Shown one piece after another: positions 1,028-39,877 of a stretch of DNA of 64,000 nt. The stretch is from Escherichia phage ECO07P3. The position numbers were made by a program, and so were the translations under genes. The stretch lies in sequence record OP172786. The stretch is one strand, 5' to 3'. The notes under the pieces were generated by a model. The model saw nothing but the letters and a program-made list of their open reading frames with translations. It ran no database searches and was not told the DNA's origin. Numbering within the stretch: the stretch's first letter is position 1; every line of letters begins with the position of its first letter.

Positions 1028-1306
1028 TTATTCTTTAAATCTAATCAATTTATTCATAGACTTTGAAACTTCTGCACGAACATCATGTAGGTTTTTGAGC
1101 TGTTCAAGACGCTGCTCATAGTAAGCAATTTCATCTTCTTCGAGACAGTCCTGTGAATCTTCTTTAAGATAACGCGCATAGTCCTGGAAAGCTTTACGGA
1201 CTACTTCCTGGAAGTCATCAAGACTTTGAATTTTCTTAGGAGCAACAGATACACGACGAGGGGCAGTATAATACTCATAACCAAACCCTGCGCTTAATTG
1301 AGCCAT
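1028..1306 (-). CDS. Hypothetical small early protein (T4 vs.3 position)
   Basis: ORF-track ORF 1028..1348; the internal Met ([13 protein letters not shown]) abuts the stop of the upstream ORF, so the start is probably 1306. No recognisable domain. Confidence 0.45.
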
Positions 1307-1572
1307 TAATATTTTTCCTCTGGTTGGAACACAGCACGACAAGCCCACATACTGGCTTCTTTGAGTTTCGTTTTAGCAATAGTTAACTGATCGAGGCTTT
1401 CAGCATAATTCTTCGCGAATTCACAGTCTTCACAATTATCTAGTGCTTCCCAGAATTCGTCATATAAAGCATCAAAGATAAGTCCTAAACGAACTTCAGC
1501 ATCTTTGATAGCATTCACTTTACCGATTTTCTCTTCAGTATGTGGTTTATAACCTTTAATGTCTTCAATCAT
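1306..1572 (-). CDS. Hypothetical small early protein
   Basis: 88 aa ORF tightly packed with its neighbours; no recognisable domain. Confidence 0.45.
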
Positions 1573-1786
1573 ATTCTACTTCCTCACCAGTACATAAATC
1601 ATATTCAACTAAACGAATAGGTTCATGAATGCCATATCCTTGAACAGAAATTTCTGTCGTAGGATAAATTCCACTAATATCACCCATGTTCCACGCTTCA
1701 TTAAATTGTTGTTCGCCTGAATTACTAAACCATTCGGCGAAAGCATTTAGCACATCTTTAGAACCTTCAATAATTATTTTTGCCAT
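1565..1786 (-). CDS. Hypothetical small acidic protein
   Basis: 73 aa ORF ([16 protein letters not shown]...), tightly packed. Confidence 0.45.
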   Translation of the reverse strand: MAKIIIEGSKDVLNAFAEWFSNSGEQQFNEAWNMGDISGIYPTTEISVQGYGIHEPIRLVEYDLCTGEEVEYD

Positions 1787-2148
1787 TACAAGCTCTCAGT
1801 AAAGGTACGAGCGATAACGTCGCGCTGCTGTTCCGGAGTCAGAGAGTTAAAGCGAACTGCATAACCGGATACACGGATGGTCAGCTGCGGATATTTTTCC
1901 GGATGCTTAACTGCATCTTCCAGAGTTTCACGACGCAAAACGTTTACGTTCAGGTGTTGACCACCTTCAATTTTAACCGTAGGCTGTGGTTCAATTTCAA
2001 TTTCACGGGCATGCAAACCGTAGAAAATTTCCGGATCTACAAAAGAGTCCTCTTTAAAGGTTTTAGAGACAATAATTCGTGCTTGAATACCATCTTCAAA
2101 ATAAATAGTACCTTTATGTGTGCCTTCAAGAATTTGATATGCTTTCAT
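1786..2148 (-). CDS. Autonomous glycyl-radical cofactor, GrcA/YfiD-like (T4 Y06I-type)
   Basis: 120 aa; C-terminal ~60 aa ([61 protein letters not shown]) carry the RVSGY glycine-radical motif and match my recall of E. coli GrcA almost exactly; the N-terminal half differs. Confidence 0.85.
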
Positions 2149-2154
2149 ATAACC

Positions 2155-2535
2155 TCAATTAGAAAATAAATTTATCCAAGATTGTTCTTTAATTAAAAAT
2201 GGCTCAGAATCATATGCCATTAAACTTTGGGTGATTAGTCCTTTAAAAGGCCCATCAATAAATTCCATGGTAAAATATGGAATTTTATTCATTAATCTTG
2301 CATTAGGAGCAGTGCACAAAACTCTACATCCTTTGAATACGCCTTTTTGTAATTTGTATTGCTTAGGATAAAATTCGCTCAAGACGTTGTTATTTGCCAA
2401 AATTTCAAAATGATTCACCAATTTATTTTTAATAGTTTTTGGCGAAAAATAAAGATATTCGAAAAGTTGCGTATCTGTCATCATTGCATTCCGATTACGA
2501 AAAACTGTGGACGAGTAATACCACCAGTACAGCAT
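2155..2535 (-). CDS. Hypothetical protein
   Basis: 126 aa ORF; no recognisable domain; overlaps the next ORF by ~55 nt in a different frame. Confidence 0.4.
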   Translation of the reverse strand: MLYWWYYSSTVFRNRNAMMTDTQLFEYLYFSPKTIKNKLVNHFEILANNNVLSEFYPKQYKLQKGVFKGCRVLCTAPNARLMNKIPYFTMEFIDGPFKGLITQSLMAYDSEPFLIKEQSWINLFSN

Positions 2536-3020
2536 TTACTATTGCAGCAGTGTTGCACAGTTTCAATATGAATATCGTAAATTTTATCCATATCAGGAGA
2601 TTTAACAGGCTCATCGATTATATACAAAATTCGAGAAAGCGATAAACCTCTGAACTTGCTACCTCTATTACCAACAAAACTACGGACAGAATCGGTAAAT
2701 AAGCGGAATCGAATATCATCGCCAGAATAACGAGAAAATTCTTTTTTAATGTGGCCCGCAGAAATTTTAGCGTAAGCTGAAGTATTAGAAAGAACAATAA
2801 CTGTTCCACCATCATACAGCCAATTAGCAGCAAAGTTAGTCACAACAGTTGATTTACCAGATTGACGTCCACCATCTAGTCGAAGTGTGCAATACTGCTT
2901 AAGTAAGTCTTCAAATGGTGGGATATAATCGTTTTTACAAATTTCTTCTACTCTAGCATCAGAATGGTGTGTAAAAGCATTCATCAGGGATAGATAAGGA
3001 CCAGTTAAAAATGTTCTCAT
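2481..3020 (-). CDS. P-loop NTPase with C-terminal Cys cluster
   Basis: Walker A GGRQSGKST, Walker B-like ILYIIDEP, and C-terminal HCCNSKCC. Probable start is the internal Met (MRTFLTGPYL) preceded by agagagaataaaATG, rather than the ORF-track start at 3068. Confidence 0.55.
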   Translation of the reverse strand: MRTFLTGPYLSLMNAFTHHSDARVEEICKNDYIPPFEDLLKQYCTLRLDGGRQSGKSTVVTNFAANWLYDGGTVIVLSNTSAYAKISAGHIKKEFSRYSGDDIRFRLFTDSVRSFVGNRGSKFRGLSLSRILYIIDEPVKSPDMDKIYDIHIETVQHCCNSKCCTGGITRPQFFVIGMQ

Positions 3021-3195
3021 TTTATTCTCTCTAAATTTGGGCCATTCCATGGCGCATGAATTGTCCATTTCTGTATTTACCCATTACCGCACTTGGGCTC
3101 GACCTTATTACAGGTTGGCGGGAATCCCTCAGAATCATGAGGTCCAGCTTGTTCCCATGTTATTTGAATGTAAATAGGCCTAAGTATAGGCCTTA

Positions 3196-3441
3196 TTAAT
3201 TACCACGGGCTGCATTAGCAACGGCATAAGCGTACTGAACATTAGCGTCCTTAAACGTACCTTTAGAGGTATCTATTTCTGCCTTAAAGCCGCCTTTAGC
3301 CATAACATCAGCAAATTCTTTACGGAAGGCCATTGCATCAAGACCTTTCCATGATGATTTGTGCTTAGCGAATTCAAGACCAGCGTAGTTGACAGCTTTA
3401 GCCAATTTATTATCAATGACCCATTTACCGGCTTTAGGCAC
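3196..3441 (-). CDS. Hypothetical Lys/Ala-rich small protein (GTG start)
   Basis: 81 aa ORF. I checked the start codon: it is GTG (plus cac at 3439-3441). Frame is open upstream to 3576 with no ATG. No resemblance to the DenV C-terminus. Confidence 0.35.
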   Translation of the reverse strand: MPKAGKWVIDNKLAKAVNYAGLEFAKHKSSWKGLDAMAFRKEFADVMAKGGFKAEIDTSKGTFKDANVQYAYAVANAARGN

Positions 3442-3473
3442 AAACTTCGGGCCTTTTTGTTTAGAGAACAGTT

Positions 3474-3710
3474 TTAAATTCCAGCGATTAACTCGATTTG
3501 GCGTAAACGTAAAAATTCGAGTTTGTTGTAAAAGAATGTTACGTGGCCTGTGCCTAAGATAAATGTTGGAGAGATTTTAAAATCCTTTACACGTTTACCG
3601 TTTTGAACATGTTTACGGACTGCACCAAATACGCGTGGTAATTCACGATACTCAGCCATAAGATGTTGGTCGGTCAGTTCGGAAACGAGTGTTAAATTGA
3701 TACGAGTCAT
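3474..3710 (-). CDS. denV: Endonuclease V (DenV, pyrimidine-dimer glycosylase) homolog, truncated at ~78 aa versus 138 aa in T4; possible pseudogene
   Basis: [35 protein letters not shown]...[20 protein letters not shown] then stop. N-terminal catalytic residues (Thr2, Arg3, Arg22, Glu23, Arg26) are present; the C-terminal ~60 residues including the aromatic WYKYY segment are absent. The real start is the internal Met of the ORF-track ORF. Confidence 0.65.
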
Positions 3711-3734
3711 AATTTCCTCCAAGTAGTTGATGAA

Positions 3735-3770
3735 TGTATAGTATCAAAACCCTTGGAGGAAGTAAACAAC
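3735..3770 (-). promoter_or_regulatory. Early promoter upstream of denV
   Basis: Minus strand TTTAC, ~17 nt, TACTAT, then ggaggaaattATG. Confidence 0.4.
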
Positions 3771-4051
3771 TATTTTTCTGAAGCGCCTGAAATATATTTT
3801 TCAAGACGTTGTTTCATCAGCGAGCCGTTCTTAGCGATTTCTTCCGGTTTGTCGCACATACGCAACAAGGCTTCAAGCTTAACGATATCACTGGTGCGCT
3901 CAAATTTGCGAGTATCTATCTTACTAGCAAGTTCAGAAATACGTGCTAATAGACTTTCAGCTTCAACCAAAGCTGCACCTAGCTTAGTTGCAAATGTGTC
4001 AGTAGCTTCGTTAAGAATAGATTCTGATAAAAATTCACTATATGTTTTCAT
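3770..4051 (-). CDS. Phage internal protein (IP) with capsid-targeting sequence, at the ipII/ipIII locus
   Basis: Starts [10 protein letters not shown] from the internal Met, fitting the T-even capsid-targeting sequence consensus MKTYQEFIAE with the gp21 cleavage context L-x-E; lies between denV and e. Confidence 0.7.
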
Positions 4052-4572: not shown

Positions 4573-5013
4573 TTAAAAGAGGTTGTTCATTATTCGGTAA
4601 AGTGAAGAACCCATCACATATTGCCACTGAGTACGAGGAATAAGAGCAAAAGCATCCATCTCTGGAATCATAACGCCATCTTTATTTTCAAAATAAGACT
4701 CACAATGGCAATTTCTAAACATCTCATGCTCTACTGGAATCGTATAATAAAACAACTGTAAGTCTTTATTACTAGAATATTTAAATACACCTAGGTCTTC
4801 TAGAAGGTCTGGATTATAATTGCTAAAACCGGTCTCTTCTAAGCATTCTCTTCGTGCTGCATCTAGTGCGCTCAAATCAGAATTTTCTACACGGCCTTTT
4901 GGAATATCCCAGCGATGTGCCATCATTCCAGGCTTACGAGAACCAGTAACTCGTCCCATAAATAAATCTTTATCTTCTGTCATAAAGATAATACCAGCTG
5001 ATAGTGTTTTCAT
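4573..5013 (-). CDS. nudE: Nudix hydrolase (T4 NudE / e.1 homolog)
   Basis: Nudix box GRVENSDLSALDAARRECLEETGF; probable start is the second ATG (MKTLSAGIIF) with AGGAA seven nt upstream. Confidence 0.85.
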   Translation of the reverse strand: MKTLSAGIIFMTEDKDLFMGRVTGSRKPGMMAHRWDIPKGRVENSDLSALDAARRECLEETGFSNYNPDLLEDLGVFKYSSNKDLQLFYYTIPVEHEMFRNCHCESYFENKDGVMIPEMDAFALIPRTQWQYVMGSSLYRIMNNLF

Positions 5014-5498
5014 TTTAATTTCCTGCATTCAGTGATAAAGTTATTTAAATTTTGAGCATATTTCTTTTCATCAAAAATCTTTTGCTGCCTACGTAAACGC
5101 CATGGCATTTCAATGAACACGCACCATATTCCTGATAGTACTGCTGCTGTAAAAATATTAACAAGTATGATTAAAAGAATCCAATCTCCCGTTCTGCCTA
5201 CTGGACTTTCTCCAAAGAAGCAAAATACAAATGATGTCACAGGAAAACTAATAATATACCACAGAATCATAATCTTATCTGTGAACCAATCAGCGTTCGT
5301 TAATTTAGCGCGACCATTATGAATACACACGAATTTATCATCTGTTGCAGTAGATGGCTTAACTGGTTGATATCCCATTCTAAACTCCCTAATCAGCAAA
5401 TTTTTCATATCTTCGGAACAGCCATTCCAGTCAACTCTATCAACTGAAATGCCATCGTCCCCATCATCTAAATCATACCAGCGAGTTTTTAAAATCAT
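5010..5498 (-). CDS. Small membrane protein (soluble N-terminus, hydrophobic C-terminal half, C-terminal ...ITECRKLK)
   Basis: 162 aa; hydrophobic segments ILWYIISFPVTSFVFCFF and WILLIILVNIFTAAVLSGIWCVF; ATGA start/stop overlap with the upstream gene. Confidence 0.5.
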   Translation of the reverse strand: MILKTRWYDLDDGDDGISVDRVDWNGCSEDMKNLLIREFRMGYQPVKPSTATDDKFVCIHNGRAKLTNADWFTDKIMILWYIISFPVTSFVFCFFGESPVGRTGDWILLIILVNIFTAAVLSGIWCVFIEMPWRLRRQQKIFDEKKYAQNLNNFITECRKLK

Positions 5499-33473: not shown

Positions 33474-36614
<3,141 letters not shown>

Positions 36615-36642: not shown

Positions 36643-38622
36643 ATGACTTTATTATCTCCGGGCATTGAGCTCAAAGAAACTACGGTTCAAAGCACCGTGG
36701 TTAATAACTCTACTGGTACAGCAGCTCTGGCCGGTAAATTCCAGTGGGGTCCTGCTTTTCAGATCAAACAGGTTACAAATGAAGTAGATTTAGTTAATAC
36801 TTTTGGTCAACCTACAGCTGAAACTGCTGACTATTTTATGTCTGCAATGAATTTCTTACAATATGGAAATGATTTGCGAGTTGTGCGTGCTGTCGATAGA
36901 GATACCGCTAAAAACTCATCTCCGATTGCTGGTAATATTGAATACACAATTTCTACCCCAGGTAGTAACTATGCGGTTGGAGATAAAATCACGGTCAAAT
37001 ATGTTTCAGATGATATTGAAACTGAAGGTAAAATTACTGAAGTAGACGCAGATGGAAAAATTAAGAAAATTAATATTCCTACTGCAAAAATTATCGCTAA
37101 AGCGAAAGAAGTAGGCGAATATCCAACACTAGGTTCTAACTGGACTGCGGAAATTTCTTCATCTTCCTCTGGTTTAGCTGCAGTAATAACTCTTGGAAAA
37201 ATTATTACTGATTCTGGTATTTTATTAGCTGAAATTGAAAATGCTGAAGCTGCTATGACAGCTGTTGATTTTCAGGAAAATCTTAAAAAATATGGAATTC
37301 CAGGAGTAGTAGCTCTTTATCCAGGCGAGTTGGGCGATAAAATCGAAATTGAAATCGTATCTAAAGCTGACTACGCAAAAGGGGCTTCTGCATTACTTCC
37401 AATTTATCCAGGTGGCGGAACGCGCGCATCTACTGCCAAAGCAGTGTTTGGATATGGACCACAAACTGATTCACAGTACGCTATTATAGTTCGTCGCAAT
37501 GATGCTATTGTTCAAAGCGTTGTTCTTTCAACGAAGCGTGGTGAAAAAGATATTTACGATAGTAACATTTATATTGATGACTTTTTCGCAAAAGGTGGTT
37601 CAGAATATATTTTCGCAACTGCACAAAACTGGCCAGAAGGCTTCTCTGGAATTTTAACTCTGTCTGGCGGATTATCATCAAATGCTGAAGTAACAGCAGG
37701 AGATTTGATGGAAGCTTGGGACTTCTTTGCTGACCGCGAATCTGTTGATGTTCAGTTGTTTATTGCGGGTTCTTGCGCCGGCGAATCTTTAGAAACAGCA
37801 TCTACTGTCCAAAAACACGTCGTTTCAATTGGTGATGCTCGCCAAGATTGCTTAGTATTGTGTTCACCGCCGCGCGAAACTGTAGTTGGAATTCCTGTAA
37901 CTCGTGCAGTTGATAATCTGGTTGATTGGCGTACTGCATCAGGTTCATACACTGATAATAACTTTAATATCAGTTCAACCTATGCGGCAATTGATGGTAA
38001 CTATAAGTATCAGTATGACAAATATAATGATGTGAATCGTTGGGTTCCATTAGCAGCTGATATTGCTGGTTTATGCGCAAGAACTGATAACGTTTCTCAT
38101 ACTTGGATGTCTCCGGCTGGTTATAATCGTGGCCAGATTCTTAACGTTATTAAACTTGCTATTGAAACTCGTCAAGCTCAGCGCGACCGTTTATACCAAG
38201 AAGCTATCAACCCGGTAACCGGTACAGGTGGTGATGGTTACGTATTGTATGGTGATAAAACAGCTACTTCTGTTCCTTCTCCATTTGATCGTATTAACGT
38301 TCGTCGTCTGTTTAATATGTTGAAAACGAATATCGGACGTAGTTCAAAATATCGTTTGTTCGAATTAAACAACGCGTTTACTCGTTCATCATTCCGCACA
38401 GAAACTGCCCAATACTTACAGGGAATTAAAGCTCTCGGTGGAATTTATGAATATCGTGTAGTTTGCGATACAACAAATAACACTCCGTCAGTAATTGATA
38501 GAAATGAGTTTGTTGCAACATTCTACATCCAACCGGCGCGCAGTATAAATTATATTACTTTGAATTTCGTCGCAACTGCTACTGGTGCAGATTTCGATGA
38601 GTTAACTGGTCTTGCAGGTTAA
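36643..38622 (+). CDS. 18: gp18 tail sheath protein
   Basis: 659 aa; gene order. Confidence 0.95.
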   Translation: MTLLSPGIELKETTVQSTVVNNSTGTAALAGKFQWGPAFQIKQVTNEVDLVNTFGQPTAETADYFMSAMNFLQYGNDLRVVRAVDRDTAKNSSPIAGNIEYTISTPGSNYAVGDKITVKYVSDDIETEGKITEVDADGKIKKINIPTAKIIAKAKEVGEYPTLGSNWTAEISSSSSGLAAVITLGKIITDSGILLAEIENAEAAMTAVDFQENLKKYGIPGVVALYPGELGDKIEIEIVSKADYAKGASALLPIYPGGGTRASTAKAVFGYGPQTDSQYAIIVRRNDAIVQSVVLSTKRGEKDIYDSNIYIDDFFAKGGSEYIFATAQNWPEGFSGILTLSGGLSSNAEVTAGDLMEAWDFFADRESVDVQLFIAGSCAGESLETASTVQKHVVSIGDARQDCLVLCSPPRETVVGIPVTRAVDNLVDWRTASGSYTDNNFNISSTYAAIDGNYKYQYDKYNDVNRWVPLAADIAGLCARTDNVSHTWMSPAGYNRGQILNVIKLAIETRQAQRDRLYQEAINPVTGTGGDGYVLYGDKTATSVPSPFDRINVRRLFNMLKTNIGRSSKYRLFELNNAFTRSSFRTETAQYLQGIKALGGIYEYRVVCDTTNNTPSVIDRNEFVATFYIQPARSINYITLNFVATATGADFDELTGLAG

Positions 38623-38629
38623 TTGATAA

Positions 38630-38643
38630 GGGGCTTCGGCCCC
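38630..38643 (+). terminator. Stem-loop (ggggcTTCGgcccc) after gene 18
   Basis: Perfect GC stem with UUCG tetraloop. Confidence 0.45.
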
Positions 38644-38660
38644 TGTTCTCGAGGAATCAA

Positions 38661-39278
38661 GTGATTATTTCTAAATTCATTAAAGTAAAAATTGTACCAT
38701 CAAATTTTAAACATTATCAGTCAAAGGGATATAAATTAACACCTCTTGGAGCGGTTAAACACGGATTTAAGTATTATGAAATTGATGTTAAAGTTGAAGA
38801 CATTAAAGGTAGTACTGCGTATGTAAAATGTCGTTGCGATAAATGTGGAATTGAATATAATCAACGCATTGGAAGAAACACTGATATTTGTTGTGATTGC
38901 CGTCATAAAGATAAAATGCATAATAATTCATATGGTTCAGCGAATAAAGGAAAAACCGTAGAATGTATGCATGGCGTAAATCATCCAAGATGGAACCCAA
39001 ATAAATCTGAAATGCGTGAATATATTTCATCGGTATATAGAGAAACTCGTAAGCATAAGAAAATTTGGTCAAAATGGCCAAATGCTGATAAGATAGGAGT
39101 GTGTGGTACAGAAGGTGCTTACCAACTTGATCATAAGGTATCTATCAAATACGGTTTTGATAATTTAATTCCTGCTAAAATAATTGGCGGTATTAATAAT
39201 TTAGAAATAATCACTTGGGAATCTAACCGAGAAAAGTCAAAAAGAAATAGCGTAGATCTTTGGGATTTACTAGAATGA
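38661..39278 (+). CDS. Free-standing HNH-family homing endonuclease (GTG start), inserted between genes 18 and 19
   Basis: 205 aa; Cys clusters CRCDKCG and CCDCRH; HNH-like core YQLDHKVSIKYGFDNL...NLEIITWESNREKS. I do not recall a gene at this position in T4. Confidence 0.6.
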   Translation: MIISKFIKVKIVPSNFKHYQSKGYKLTPLGAVKHGFKYYEIDVKVEDIKGSTAYVKCRCDKCGIEYNQRIGRNTDICCDCRHKDKMHNNSYGSANKGKTVECMHGVNHPRWNPNKSEMREYISSVYRETRKHKKIWSKWPNADKIGVCGTEGAYQLDHKVSIKYGFDNLIPAKIIGGINNLEIITWESNREKSKRNSVDLWDLLE

Positions 39279-39285
39279 TTCTAAA

Positions 39286-39303
39286 GGCCTGTTTCGGCAG
39301 GCC
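39286..39303 (+). terminator. Stem-loop (ggcctgTTTCGGcaggcc)
   Basis: Inverted repeat downstream of the HNH ORF. Confidence 0.35.
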
Positions 39304-39304
39304 A

Positions 39305-39312
39305 TATAAATA
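39305..39312 (+). promoter_or_regulatory. Late promoter TATAAATA (first of two upstream of gene 19)
   Basis: Exact consensus. Confidence 0.5.
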
Positions 39313-39363: not shown

Positions 39364-39371
39364 TATAAATA
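39364..39371 (+). promoter_or_regulatory. Late promoter TATAAATA (second, proximal to gene 19)
   Basis: Exact consensus. Confidence 0.55.
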
Positions 39372-39385
39372 CTACAGAGGCTAAT

Positions 39386-39877
39386 ATGTTTGTAGATGAT
39401 GTAACACGAGCGTTTGAATCTGGTGATTTTGCTCGACCTAACTTATTCCAAGTAGAAATTTCTTATCTTGGACAAAATTTTACGTTTCAATGTAAAGCCA
39501 CTGCTTTACCAGCTGGTATTGTAGAAAAAATTCCAGTCGGATTTATGAACCGTAAAATTAACGTAGCAGGCGATCGTACATTCGATGACTGGACTGTTAC
39601 AGTAATGAACGATGAGGCACATGATGCTCGCCAGAAGTTTGTTGACTGGCAAAGCATTGCTGCTGGGCAAGGGAACGAAATTACTGGTGGAAAACCAGCA
39701 GAGTATAAAAAGAGCGCTGTTGTTCGCCAATATGCTCGTGACGCTAAAACCGTAACAAAAGAAGTCGAAATTAAAGGCCTGTGGCCTACTAACGTGGGTG
39801 AACTTCAATTAGATTGGGATTCAAACAATGAAATCCAAACCTTTGAAGTAACTCTCGCTCTCGATTATTGGGAATAA
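39386..39877 (+). CDS. 19: gp19 tail tube protein
   Basis: 163 aa; gene order. Confidence 0.95.
   Translation: MFVDDVTRAFESGDFARPNLFQVEISYLGQNFTFQCKATALPAGIVEKIPVGFMNRKINVAGDRTFDDWTVTVMNDEAHDARQKFVDWQSIAAGQGNEITGGKPAEYKKSAVVRQYARDAKTVTKEVEIKGLWPTNVGELQLDWDSNNEIQTFEVTLALDYWE

Follow-up and report, generated by a model that had tools for sequence, protein, structure and literature searches.

The window analysed here is a stretch of 64,000 nucleotides from Escherichia phage ECO07P3 (sequence record OP172786), a segment of a Tequatrovirus (T4-like) genome. Between its tail sheath and tail tube genes lies an inserted open reading frame (ORF) that is probably an intact and active gene of a free-standing HNH homing endonuclease, whose putative product would combine a zinc-ribbon N-terminal domain with an HNH C-terminal domain. 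A previous inspection of the letters, termed here the sequence-only reading, had proposed a mobile gene at an insertion hotspot. This proposal is supported by comparison of the junctions, by a presence/absence polymorphism in three genera, by the existence of two alleles and by patches of foreign sequence in the flanks.

A precisely inserted cassette between genes 18 and 19

The elements of the junction are as follows.

36607 to 36614: late promoter TATAAATA before gene 18 (promoter match)
36643 to 38622, + strand: gene 18, tail sheath, the upstream neighbour (98–99% identity to T4 gp18)
38623 to 39278, + strand: inserted cassette, composed of hairpin, ribosome-binding site and ORF (alignment of 15 junctions)
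38630 to 38643, + strand: UUCG-loop hairpin GGGGCUUCGGCCCC at the 5' end of the cassette, directly after the gene 18 stop (sequence and fold)
38651 to 38655, + strand: Shine–Dalgarno GAGGA, 5 nt 5' of the GTG (read from the sequence)
38661 to 39278, + strand: ORF19.1-type gene, allele A, putative free-standing HNH homing endonuclease (205 aa, GTG start)
39286 to 39303, + strand: native T4 intergenic hairpin GGCCUGUUUCGGCAGGCC, outside the insert (identical in T4 and all empty-site genomes)
39305 to 39312, + strand: native late promoter TATAAATA, upstream member of the pair preceding gene 19 (identical in empty-site genomes)
39364 to 39371, + strand: native late promoter TATAAATA, downstream member of the pair preceding gene 19 (identical in empty-site genomes)
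39386 to 39877, + strand: gene 19, tail tube, the downstream neighbour (about 99% identity to T4 gp19)

The ORF spans 38661–39278, encodes 205 residues and opens with GTG, exactly as the sequence-only reading had it. This GTG is the earliest in-frame start codon, and it is favoured as the start because the N-terminus MIISK is kept in all 30 aligned homologs, most of which use ATG. The spacer between genes 18 and 19 measures 763 nt in the window against 116 nt in T4. Alignment of 15 junctions revealed that both borders are exact, with a 656-bp cassette standing where the T4 spacer has the 8 bp ACGGTGCA; the position is thus empty in T4, as the sequence-only reading had it. The hairpin at the 5' end of the cassette is found in both the minimum-energy and the centroid structures, has no U-run, and is common to the two alleles described below. 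The window cassette is 100% identical to that of phage W143, and the segment 38000–39900 shares 99.4% identity with Escherichia phage ECO07P1.

The hairpin and the two late promoters that follow the ORF had been taken as a sign that the insertion preserved gene 19 expression. They do follow the ORF; they are native T4 sequence, however, because they are identical in genomes that lack the ORF, and the cassette simply lies upstream of them. Exact matches to TATAAATA number 23 in the whole window against 9 expected by chance, including those before genes 18, 19 and 20, and this number fits the expectation for a T4 late region.

Two peculiarities of the public records were met at this locus. The gene 19 product is called 'tail fibers protein' in many of them. 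GenBank MG010123.1, a 32-kb entry under the name 'Staphylococcus phage SAJK-IND', shares 97% identity with Tequatrovirus from the sheath gene through the ORF to the tube gene, and is, judged by this identity, probably mislabelled or contaminated.

A zinc ribbon joined to a putative HNH nuclease domain

Within the ORF, three features of the predicted protein can be delineated.

38835 to 38900, + strand: Cys4 zinc ribbon C59, C62, C77 and C80 in the N-terminal domain, the presumed DNA-binding module (Cys conservation and weak domain matches)
38958 to 39275, + strand: putative C-terminal nuclease domain, residues 100–205
39129 to 39236, + strand: HNH core D157-H158, N180, N189 and K192 (invariance and secondary structure)

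Both Cys clusters that had been recognised earlier are present, C57/C59/C62 and C77/C78/C80. They are not separate units but the two halves of one Cys4 zinc ribbon, since C59, C62 and C77 are invariant in the family and C80 is mostly conserved (Cys in most members and His in one subgroup, among 30 aligned homologs). Weak matches to zinc-binding models, namely the DUF4379 treble-clef in eight and zinc ribbons in four of 30 homologs, were also recorded.

The proposed DH...N...N core proved to be the best conserved part of the protein. Across 50 diverse C-terminal domains, no columns are invariant other than D157, H158, N180 and N189; in the 30-homolog alignment these four and K192 are all invariant. 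In the AlphaFold model (pLDDT of 87 for the full protein; pLDDT of 93 and pTM of 0.80 for the domain alone), residues 154–158 and 181–185 form strands and residues 186–192 a helix. D157-H158 sits at the end of strand 1, N180 precedes strand 2, and N189 and K192 lie on the following helix. The model thereby displays the two antiparallel strands and the helix of the beta-beta-alpha-metal fold, together with the His-Me finger pattern (a general-base His, usually within DH, closing strand 1; a structural Asn ahead of strand 2; and a metal-binding Asn or His on the helix), the residues of which are intact in the window. As read from the alignments, DH...N...N is the residue pattern of HNH nucleases. 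The best structural matches are Gme HNH (PDB 4h9d, a nicking enzyme) and phage GVE2 HNH (PDB 5h0o), both small stand-alone HNH endonucleases; a Foldseek search of the full model against the PDB returned nothing below E 3.6. We conclude from these comparisons that the protein comprises a zinc-ribbon domain joined to a putative HNH-type (beta-beta-alpha-metal) nuclease, of a family that has no curated model.

The databases agree with this placement to different degrees. In PHROGs, residues 1–204 match phrog_5104 at E 1e-90, a family whose function is not known there; this match along its whole length, together with its location between the sheath and tube genes, assigns the protein to the ORF19.1 family. 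To extend beyond this family, 50 C-terminal domains were scanned one by one against PHROGs. Phrog_1035 ('endonuclease VII') was matched by 22 of them (best E 4.5e-6) and phrog_6050 ('HNH endonuclease') by eight, and others matched phrog_144 and phrog_589 ('HNH endonuclease'). These HNH and endonuclease VII matches range from E 5e-6 to 4e-3 and span the whole domain, in PHROG families that are uncurated. Pfam, NCBIfam and PADLOC gave no match to the window protein, the first two thus yielding no significant hit to a curated HNH model and the last none to its defence-system models. Scans of the protein and 30 homologs against curated models returned weak zinc-ribbon matches and no nuclease, and single family members reach Pfam HNH_4 at E 0.078 and HNH_5 at E 0.22. 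The profile search that had been recommended as a check on the HNH assignment is therefore divided: Pfam offers no support, whereas PHROG HNH and endonuclease VII families are matched by members of the family.

Against PDB sequences, the full-length profile gave zinc-finger noise only. Leucine-rich-repeat matches of the C-domain profile were rejected as spurious, since the stretch IGxIxNLxxLxxxxN mimics the repeat unit. With hhalign, the HNH domain of Cas9 was aligned at 27% probability over the YxxDH stretch only, which includes the DH.

A homolog search yielded 44 clusters, none with a Pfam domain. Searching the family profile against 1.84 billion representatives retrieved 6,598 cluster representatives at E<=0.001, each relative being a cluster at 50% identity. 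Some longer relatives (P0180, P0183, P0126, P0127 and P0150; 316–451 aa) carry Pfam DUF7487 directly before the nuclease domain. This domain of unknown function may supply these endonucleases with an additional means of binding DNA.

The literature searched contained no paper on ORF19.1 and no cleavage or homing experiment on any member. ORF19.1 is said to have been first described, in phage T6, by Repoila et al. in EMBO J in 1994. Nearly all database records label the gene 'hypothetical protein'; single homolog records are labelled 'holin', 'putative head morphogenesis protein' or 'type II restriction endonuclease'.

Patchy presence and two mosaic alleles at one site

The cassette is present in 117 phage records, 47 of them of type A, and flanks at least 95% identical are found in about 513 records. 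T4 and about three quarters of the close relatives do not have it. This gene is therefore not a universally conserved structural gene, the finding that would have told against the sequence-only reading. Occupied junctions are identical in all ten genomes compared, and the empty site is identical in 16 empty genomes except for one G-to-A change in L027. Furthermore, empty and occupied sites coexist in three genera. Among Gelderlandvirus-like phages, STP4-a is occupied and L014 and L015 are empty, and the VR26 group likewise shows both states (L018 versus L017, L019 and L034). Such precise presence or absence at one site among close relatives is characteristic of homing genes.

Two alleles occupy these identical junctions: type A, found in the window and in RB3, and type B, the ORF19.1 of T6. 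They are mosaic and 49% identical, sharing the leader and the last ~230 nt, with a central ~400 nt that is 40–55% identical. Comparison of T6 with the window gives 98.8% identity for gp18 and 49% for the ORF; for STP4-a the corresponding values are 77.6% and 63%. The versions found in Klebsiella, Salmonella and Enterobacter phages resemble allele A more (62–66%) than allele B does. ORF identity is thus incongruent with gp18 identity, which, combined with the mosaic alleles and the short flank patches, indicates lateral transfer.

Within each allele the dN/dS ratio is 0.02–0.11, a mark of purifying selection, and the ORF is full length in all ten copies examined. Given these ratios and the 6,598 matches of the family profile, the ORF is more than a chance reading frame.

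Close relatives, inspected one by one, all lie between sheath and tube genes. The contexts inspected include those of T6, a Klebsiella phage, Salmonella STP4-a, Acinetobacter AbTZA1, Bp7, Sinorhizobium phiM7 and three metagenomic contigs; in phiM7 the relative occupies the same junction beside a sheath that is 44% identical. Among 80 IMG/VR loci retrieved by the family profile, 47 are at the sheath/tube junction, two of these on the opposite strand, and they include all 36 best-scoring ones. In several phages the gap from the ORF to the tube gene is only 1–13 nt.

Some of the IMG/VR junctions deviate in detail. In L062 and L121 the family member lies between the tube and sheath genes on the strand opposite to both. 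L079–L081 have about 500 nt extra between ORF and tube gene, and L089 has gaps of 566 and 260 nt; further inserted ORFs may reside at these junctions.

The remaining 33 of the 80 loci are more distant, share mainly the nuclease domain and are situated elsewhere in the genome; five of the 33 contexts were sampled. Distant relatives adjoin gp23-like major capsid genes (L119 and L127), follow a DnaB-like helicase gene (L118) or stand beside a GIY-YIG/NUMOD3 ORF (L113). In L115 and L117 (~1096–3784), two ribonucleotide reductase fragments enclose a distant relative of the nuclease domain; an Intein_splicing match is present in the upstream one, and the ORF downstream contains ...SHN/TSAQIS. The arrangement has the appearance of a split ('fractured') gene whose halves flank a free-standing endonuclease gene. 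Capsid, helicase, split-reductase and GIY-YIG neighbourhoods are classic homing endonuclease contexts.

The next junction downstream, between genes 19 and 20, also deserves mention. In Bp7 (L007; 3769–4350 and 4408–5630), an ORF annotated 'HNH endonuclease' lies between the tube gene and a portal gene annotated in two pieces; it has only a weak Pfam SegE GIY-YIG match (E 0.0046), and its label may be wrong. In the metagenomic T4-like contig L055, which also bears an ORF19.1 relative, a 206-aa ORF with a faint NUMOD3 match (4608–5228) separates the tube gene from the portal gene. The 19/20 junction, too, seems to be a site of insertion.

Cassette-linked patches in the flanking genes

Three stretches of the flanking genes differ between occupied and empty genomes.

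38539 to 38571, + strand: clustered synonymous changes where gene 18 encodes the invariant motif SINYITLNFVA, a cassette-linked candidate target region
38544 to 38551, + strand: TATAAATT, a 7-of-8 match to the T4 late promoter inside gene 18 (T4 has CATTAACT there)
39727 to 39778, + strand: gene 19 nt 342–393, including I127V, cassette-linked (phi 0.5–0.72)

The first cluster corresponds to positions -84 to -52, counted back from where the gene 18 stop codon ends. In a sample of 25 non-identical Tequatrovirus genomes, 10 of them occupied, the linked sheath alleles are present in all ten cassette-bearing genomes and in 2–4 of the 15 with an empty site (phi 0.72–0.85, p 5e-4 to 2e-5). The linkage peaks at -58/-52 (phi 0.85, p 2e-5), and none is seen beyond -94. 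The cluster could represent either a co-converted donor flank or immunity changes in the target.

Patches of the same kind were found outside Tequatrovirus. VR26, compared with three empty-site relatives, shows 13 changes in the sheath bin -90 to -61, where controls have 0–1, and eight within the 30 nt that open the tube gene, against none in controls. Between STP4-a and the otherwise near-identical L014, the final 120 nt of the sheath gene hold 30 changes, and the 900 nt that begin with the tube gene hold only three scattered ones, of which one falls within the initial 30 nt. Short foreign patches abutting the cassette are the expected trace of double-strand-break repair from a diverged donor. 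Their distribution suggests that the break falls within the conserved sheath motif, ~90–120 nt ahead of the insertion. The patches record recombination with diverged donors, with the window protein as a candidate for the maker of the break. This reading is limited by HY01 and Ozark, which have an empty site and yet a full cassette-type flank patch; flank and cassette can therefore separate.

The gene 19 stretch (nt 342–393) is read as a hitch-hiking or co-converted haplotype, which would not amount to obligatory immunity changes. A target in gene 19 nt 288–393 with immunity through I112V and I127V fitted the first 15 genomes perfectly and then broke down: in JoYop a T4-type allele accompanies the cassette, and in Shfl2 and ime09 a cassette-type allele stands beside an empty site. 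The genomes added in this comparison were chosen from matches to the cassette-type allele, which biases them towards exceptions. A family-wide codon signature, ATA-AAT, in the sheath motif was also discarded, its link to the cassette being not significant (13 of 34 versus 3 of 16 distinct haplotypes, p 0.21), and this too limits the case for a break in that motif.

Taken together, the patchy presence, mosaic alleles, incongruent history, purifying selection and flank patches support the view that the gene behaves like a homing endonuclease gene.

Expression and a putative homing cycle

Before the ORF, no promoter of its own was found, sigma-70-like matches being at chance level; nor was a terminator-like site found in the cassette. 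An RNA hairpin masking the ribosome-binding site, as in mobE, was dismissed: the fold is weak, missing from the centroid structure and has a z-score of -1.24. The near-promoter TATAAATT arises through the cassette-linked synonymous changes in gene 18, and the AbTZA1 and Bp7 homologs have a perfect TATAAATA just upstream of the ORF. It is plausible that in the window the ORF is expressed late, from the gene 18 promoter at 36607 through the UUCG hairpin.

For the ORF19.1-type gene, we infer expression timing, cleavage, target position and homing along the following lines. Late in infection, the ORF would be read as a passenger on gene 18 late transcripts that cross the UUCG hairpin. The N-terminal Cys4 zinc-ribbon domain is presumed to recognise DNA. 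Upon co-infection with a relative whose junction is empty, the enzyme would nick or cut that genome near the 18/19 junction. The cut would most likely fall in the last ~120 nt of the sheath gene, which encode the invariant motif PARSINYITLNFVAT, or at the junction itself (TAA-TACGGTGCA-TTCTAAAGG). Afterwards, T4-type recombination-dependent repair would mend the broken genome with a copy of the cassette and a short piece of adjoining donor flank.

A wider reading is conceivable but rather doubtful: a single HNH lineage may have kept to the sheath/tube junction across the whole T4 superfamily, Tequatrovirus, Acinetobacter phages and phiM7 included, by targeting the DNA that encodes PARSINYITLNFVAT, and may have stayed active by swapping its zinc-ribbon recognition domain, as alleles A and B would illustrate. 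If so, the gene would be the founding, datable example of a large HNH family of 6,598 clusters that has no curated model and is also seen at capsid, helicase and split-reductase loci.

Alternative explanations

The alternative that survives best, though unlikely, is an accessory nuclease that serves the phage by excluding competing phages, cutting host DNA or countering defence, in a cassette that spreads by ordinary homologous recombination through the sheath and tube genes. Strong purifying selection on a polymorphic gene, the keeping of one position over very large evolutionary distances, and the empty sites of HY01 and Ozark with their full cassette-type flanks would all suit such a role. 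However, no defence-system model is matched, and the distant relatives occupy classic homing contexts, including a split reductase with intein remnants. The flank patches, moreover, are short and abut the cassette, as break repair predicts. Exclusion by site-specific cutting beside the nuclease's own gene would in any case be intronless homing mechanistically.

Could the ORF instead be an ancient resident of the late tail operon, inherited vertically, repeatedly lost (in T4 among others) and now immobile? In favour, all close members examined are at the sheath/tube junction, including the 36 best of the 80 IMG/VR loci and phiM7, and in several phages the ORF comes within 1–13 nt of the tube gene. 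The alleles, in contrast, are 49% identical despite flanks that are 98–99% identical, and allele A is nearer to the Klebsiella, Salmonella and Enterobacter phage versions (62–66%) than to allele B. Near-isogenic pairs differ by the cassette and a short foreign patch, and the empty sites are identical and clean. Vertical residence is accordingly quite improbable.

That the gene is a decaying or inactive relic, no longer cutting, is very improbable. Many T-even homing endonuclease genes are defective, and T4 I-TevIII is annotated so; the catalytic and zinc-binding residues of the window protein are nevertheless all intact, and the ten copies examined are full length with dN/dS of 0.02–0.11.

Least credible of all is an HNH helper of the DNA-packaging terminase, as found beside terminase genes in HK97-like phages: the best structural matches are small stand-alone HNH endonucleases, of which GVE2 HNH at least is presumably terminase-associated, and the ORF list places the gene two genes downstream of the large terminase gene, but T4 and about three quarters of its close relatives lack the gene and package normally, T4 packages by the headful and needs no cos-site cutting, and both the zinc-ribbon N-terminal domain and the mosaic alleles speak for recognition of a sequence.

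The probable homing endonuclease and its significance

Assignment of the ORF as a homing endonuclease gene would give a function to a family with thousands of members and no curated model, and would explain a recurrent length polymorphism in the conserved tail module. It would also provide a natural system for studying persistence, in which two mosaic alleles compete for one site and near-isogenic empty and occupied pairs are available in three genera. In addition, annotators of therapeutic T4-like phages could drop the labels holin, head morphogenesis protein and restriction enzyme.

Comparison with known systems

Free-standing homing endonucleases have their reference system in the T-even phages. 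The nearest counterpart, ORF19.1 of T6, belongs to the same family and has the same junctions, leader hairpin and first seven codons as the window ORF, as well as a near-identical C-terminal ~70 residues. It differs in its 49% overall identity and in the central ~400 nt (zinc ribbon and linker; 40–55%), which are of a different lineage. Its records assign no function.

Like the window ORF, T4 MobA–MobE are small HNH genes located between conserved T-even genes and variably present; MobE, the characterised Mob, reportedly acts on a conserved gene next to its own (PMC2988022 Table 1; PMC2790892). MobE matches Pfam HNH PF01844, whereas the window protein has no PF01844 match. The latter is set apart by its DH-N-N core with a separate Cys4 ribbon and by its late structural region. 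Aligned by hhalign as single sequences with the family profile, T4 MobE, the one Mob protein compared, and the T4 I-TevIII remnant scored a probability of ~0.15%, which gives no sign of sequence similarity to the Mob proteins.

RB3 has both I-TevIII and allele A of the ORF. The I-TevIII of RB3 presumably carries a zinc finger too. I-TevIII is an HNH nuclease active in RB3 (PMC2988022). Unlike the free-standing ORF, it is intron-encoded, in nrdB, and similarity is undetectable against the T4 remnant, which was compared in place of the full RB3 protein. The T4 table of a 2010 review has no entry at the 18/19 junction (PMC2988022), and a survey of T4 relatives credits RB3 with no 'other HNH' gene (PMC2993671).

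The T-even Mob (HNH) and Seg (GIY-YIG) endonucleases home without an intron and co-convert flanking markers (PMC2988022, PMC2993671). In the case of SegF and SegG (T4 against T2), a free-standing endonuclease gene lies beside its target gene and flanking markers are co-converted; the flank patches and linked markers of the window fit this intronless homing model. SegF and SegG are GIY-YIG enzymes with mapped cleavage sites, whereas the window protein is HNH-like and known from sequence. Thus, the putative homing cycle of the ORF is reminiscent of established T-even systems, and what is unusual for such elements is its strict, very old tie to one junction and its mosaic pair of alleles.
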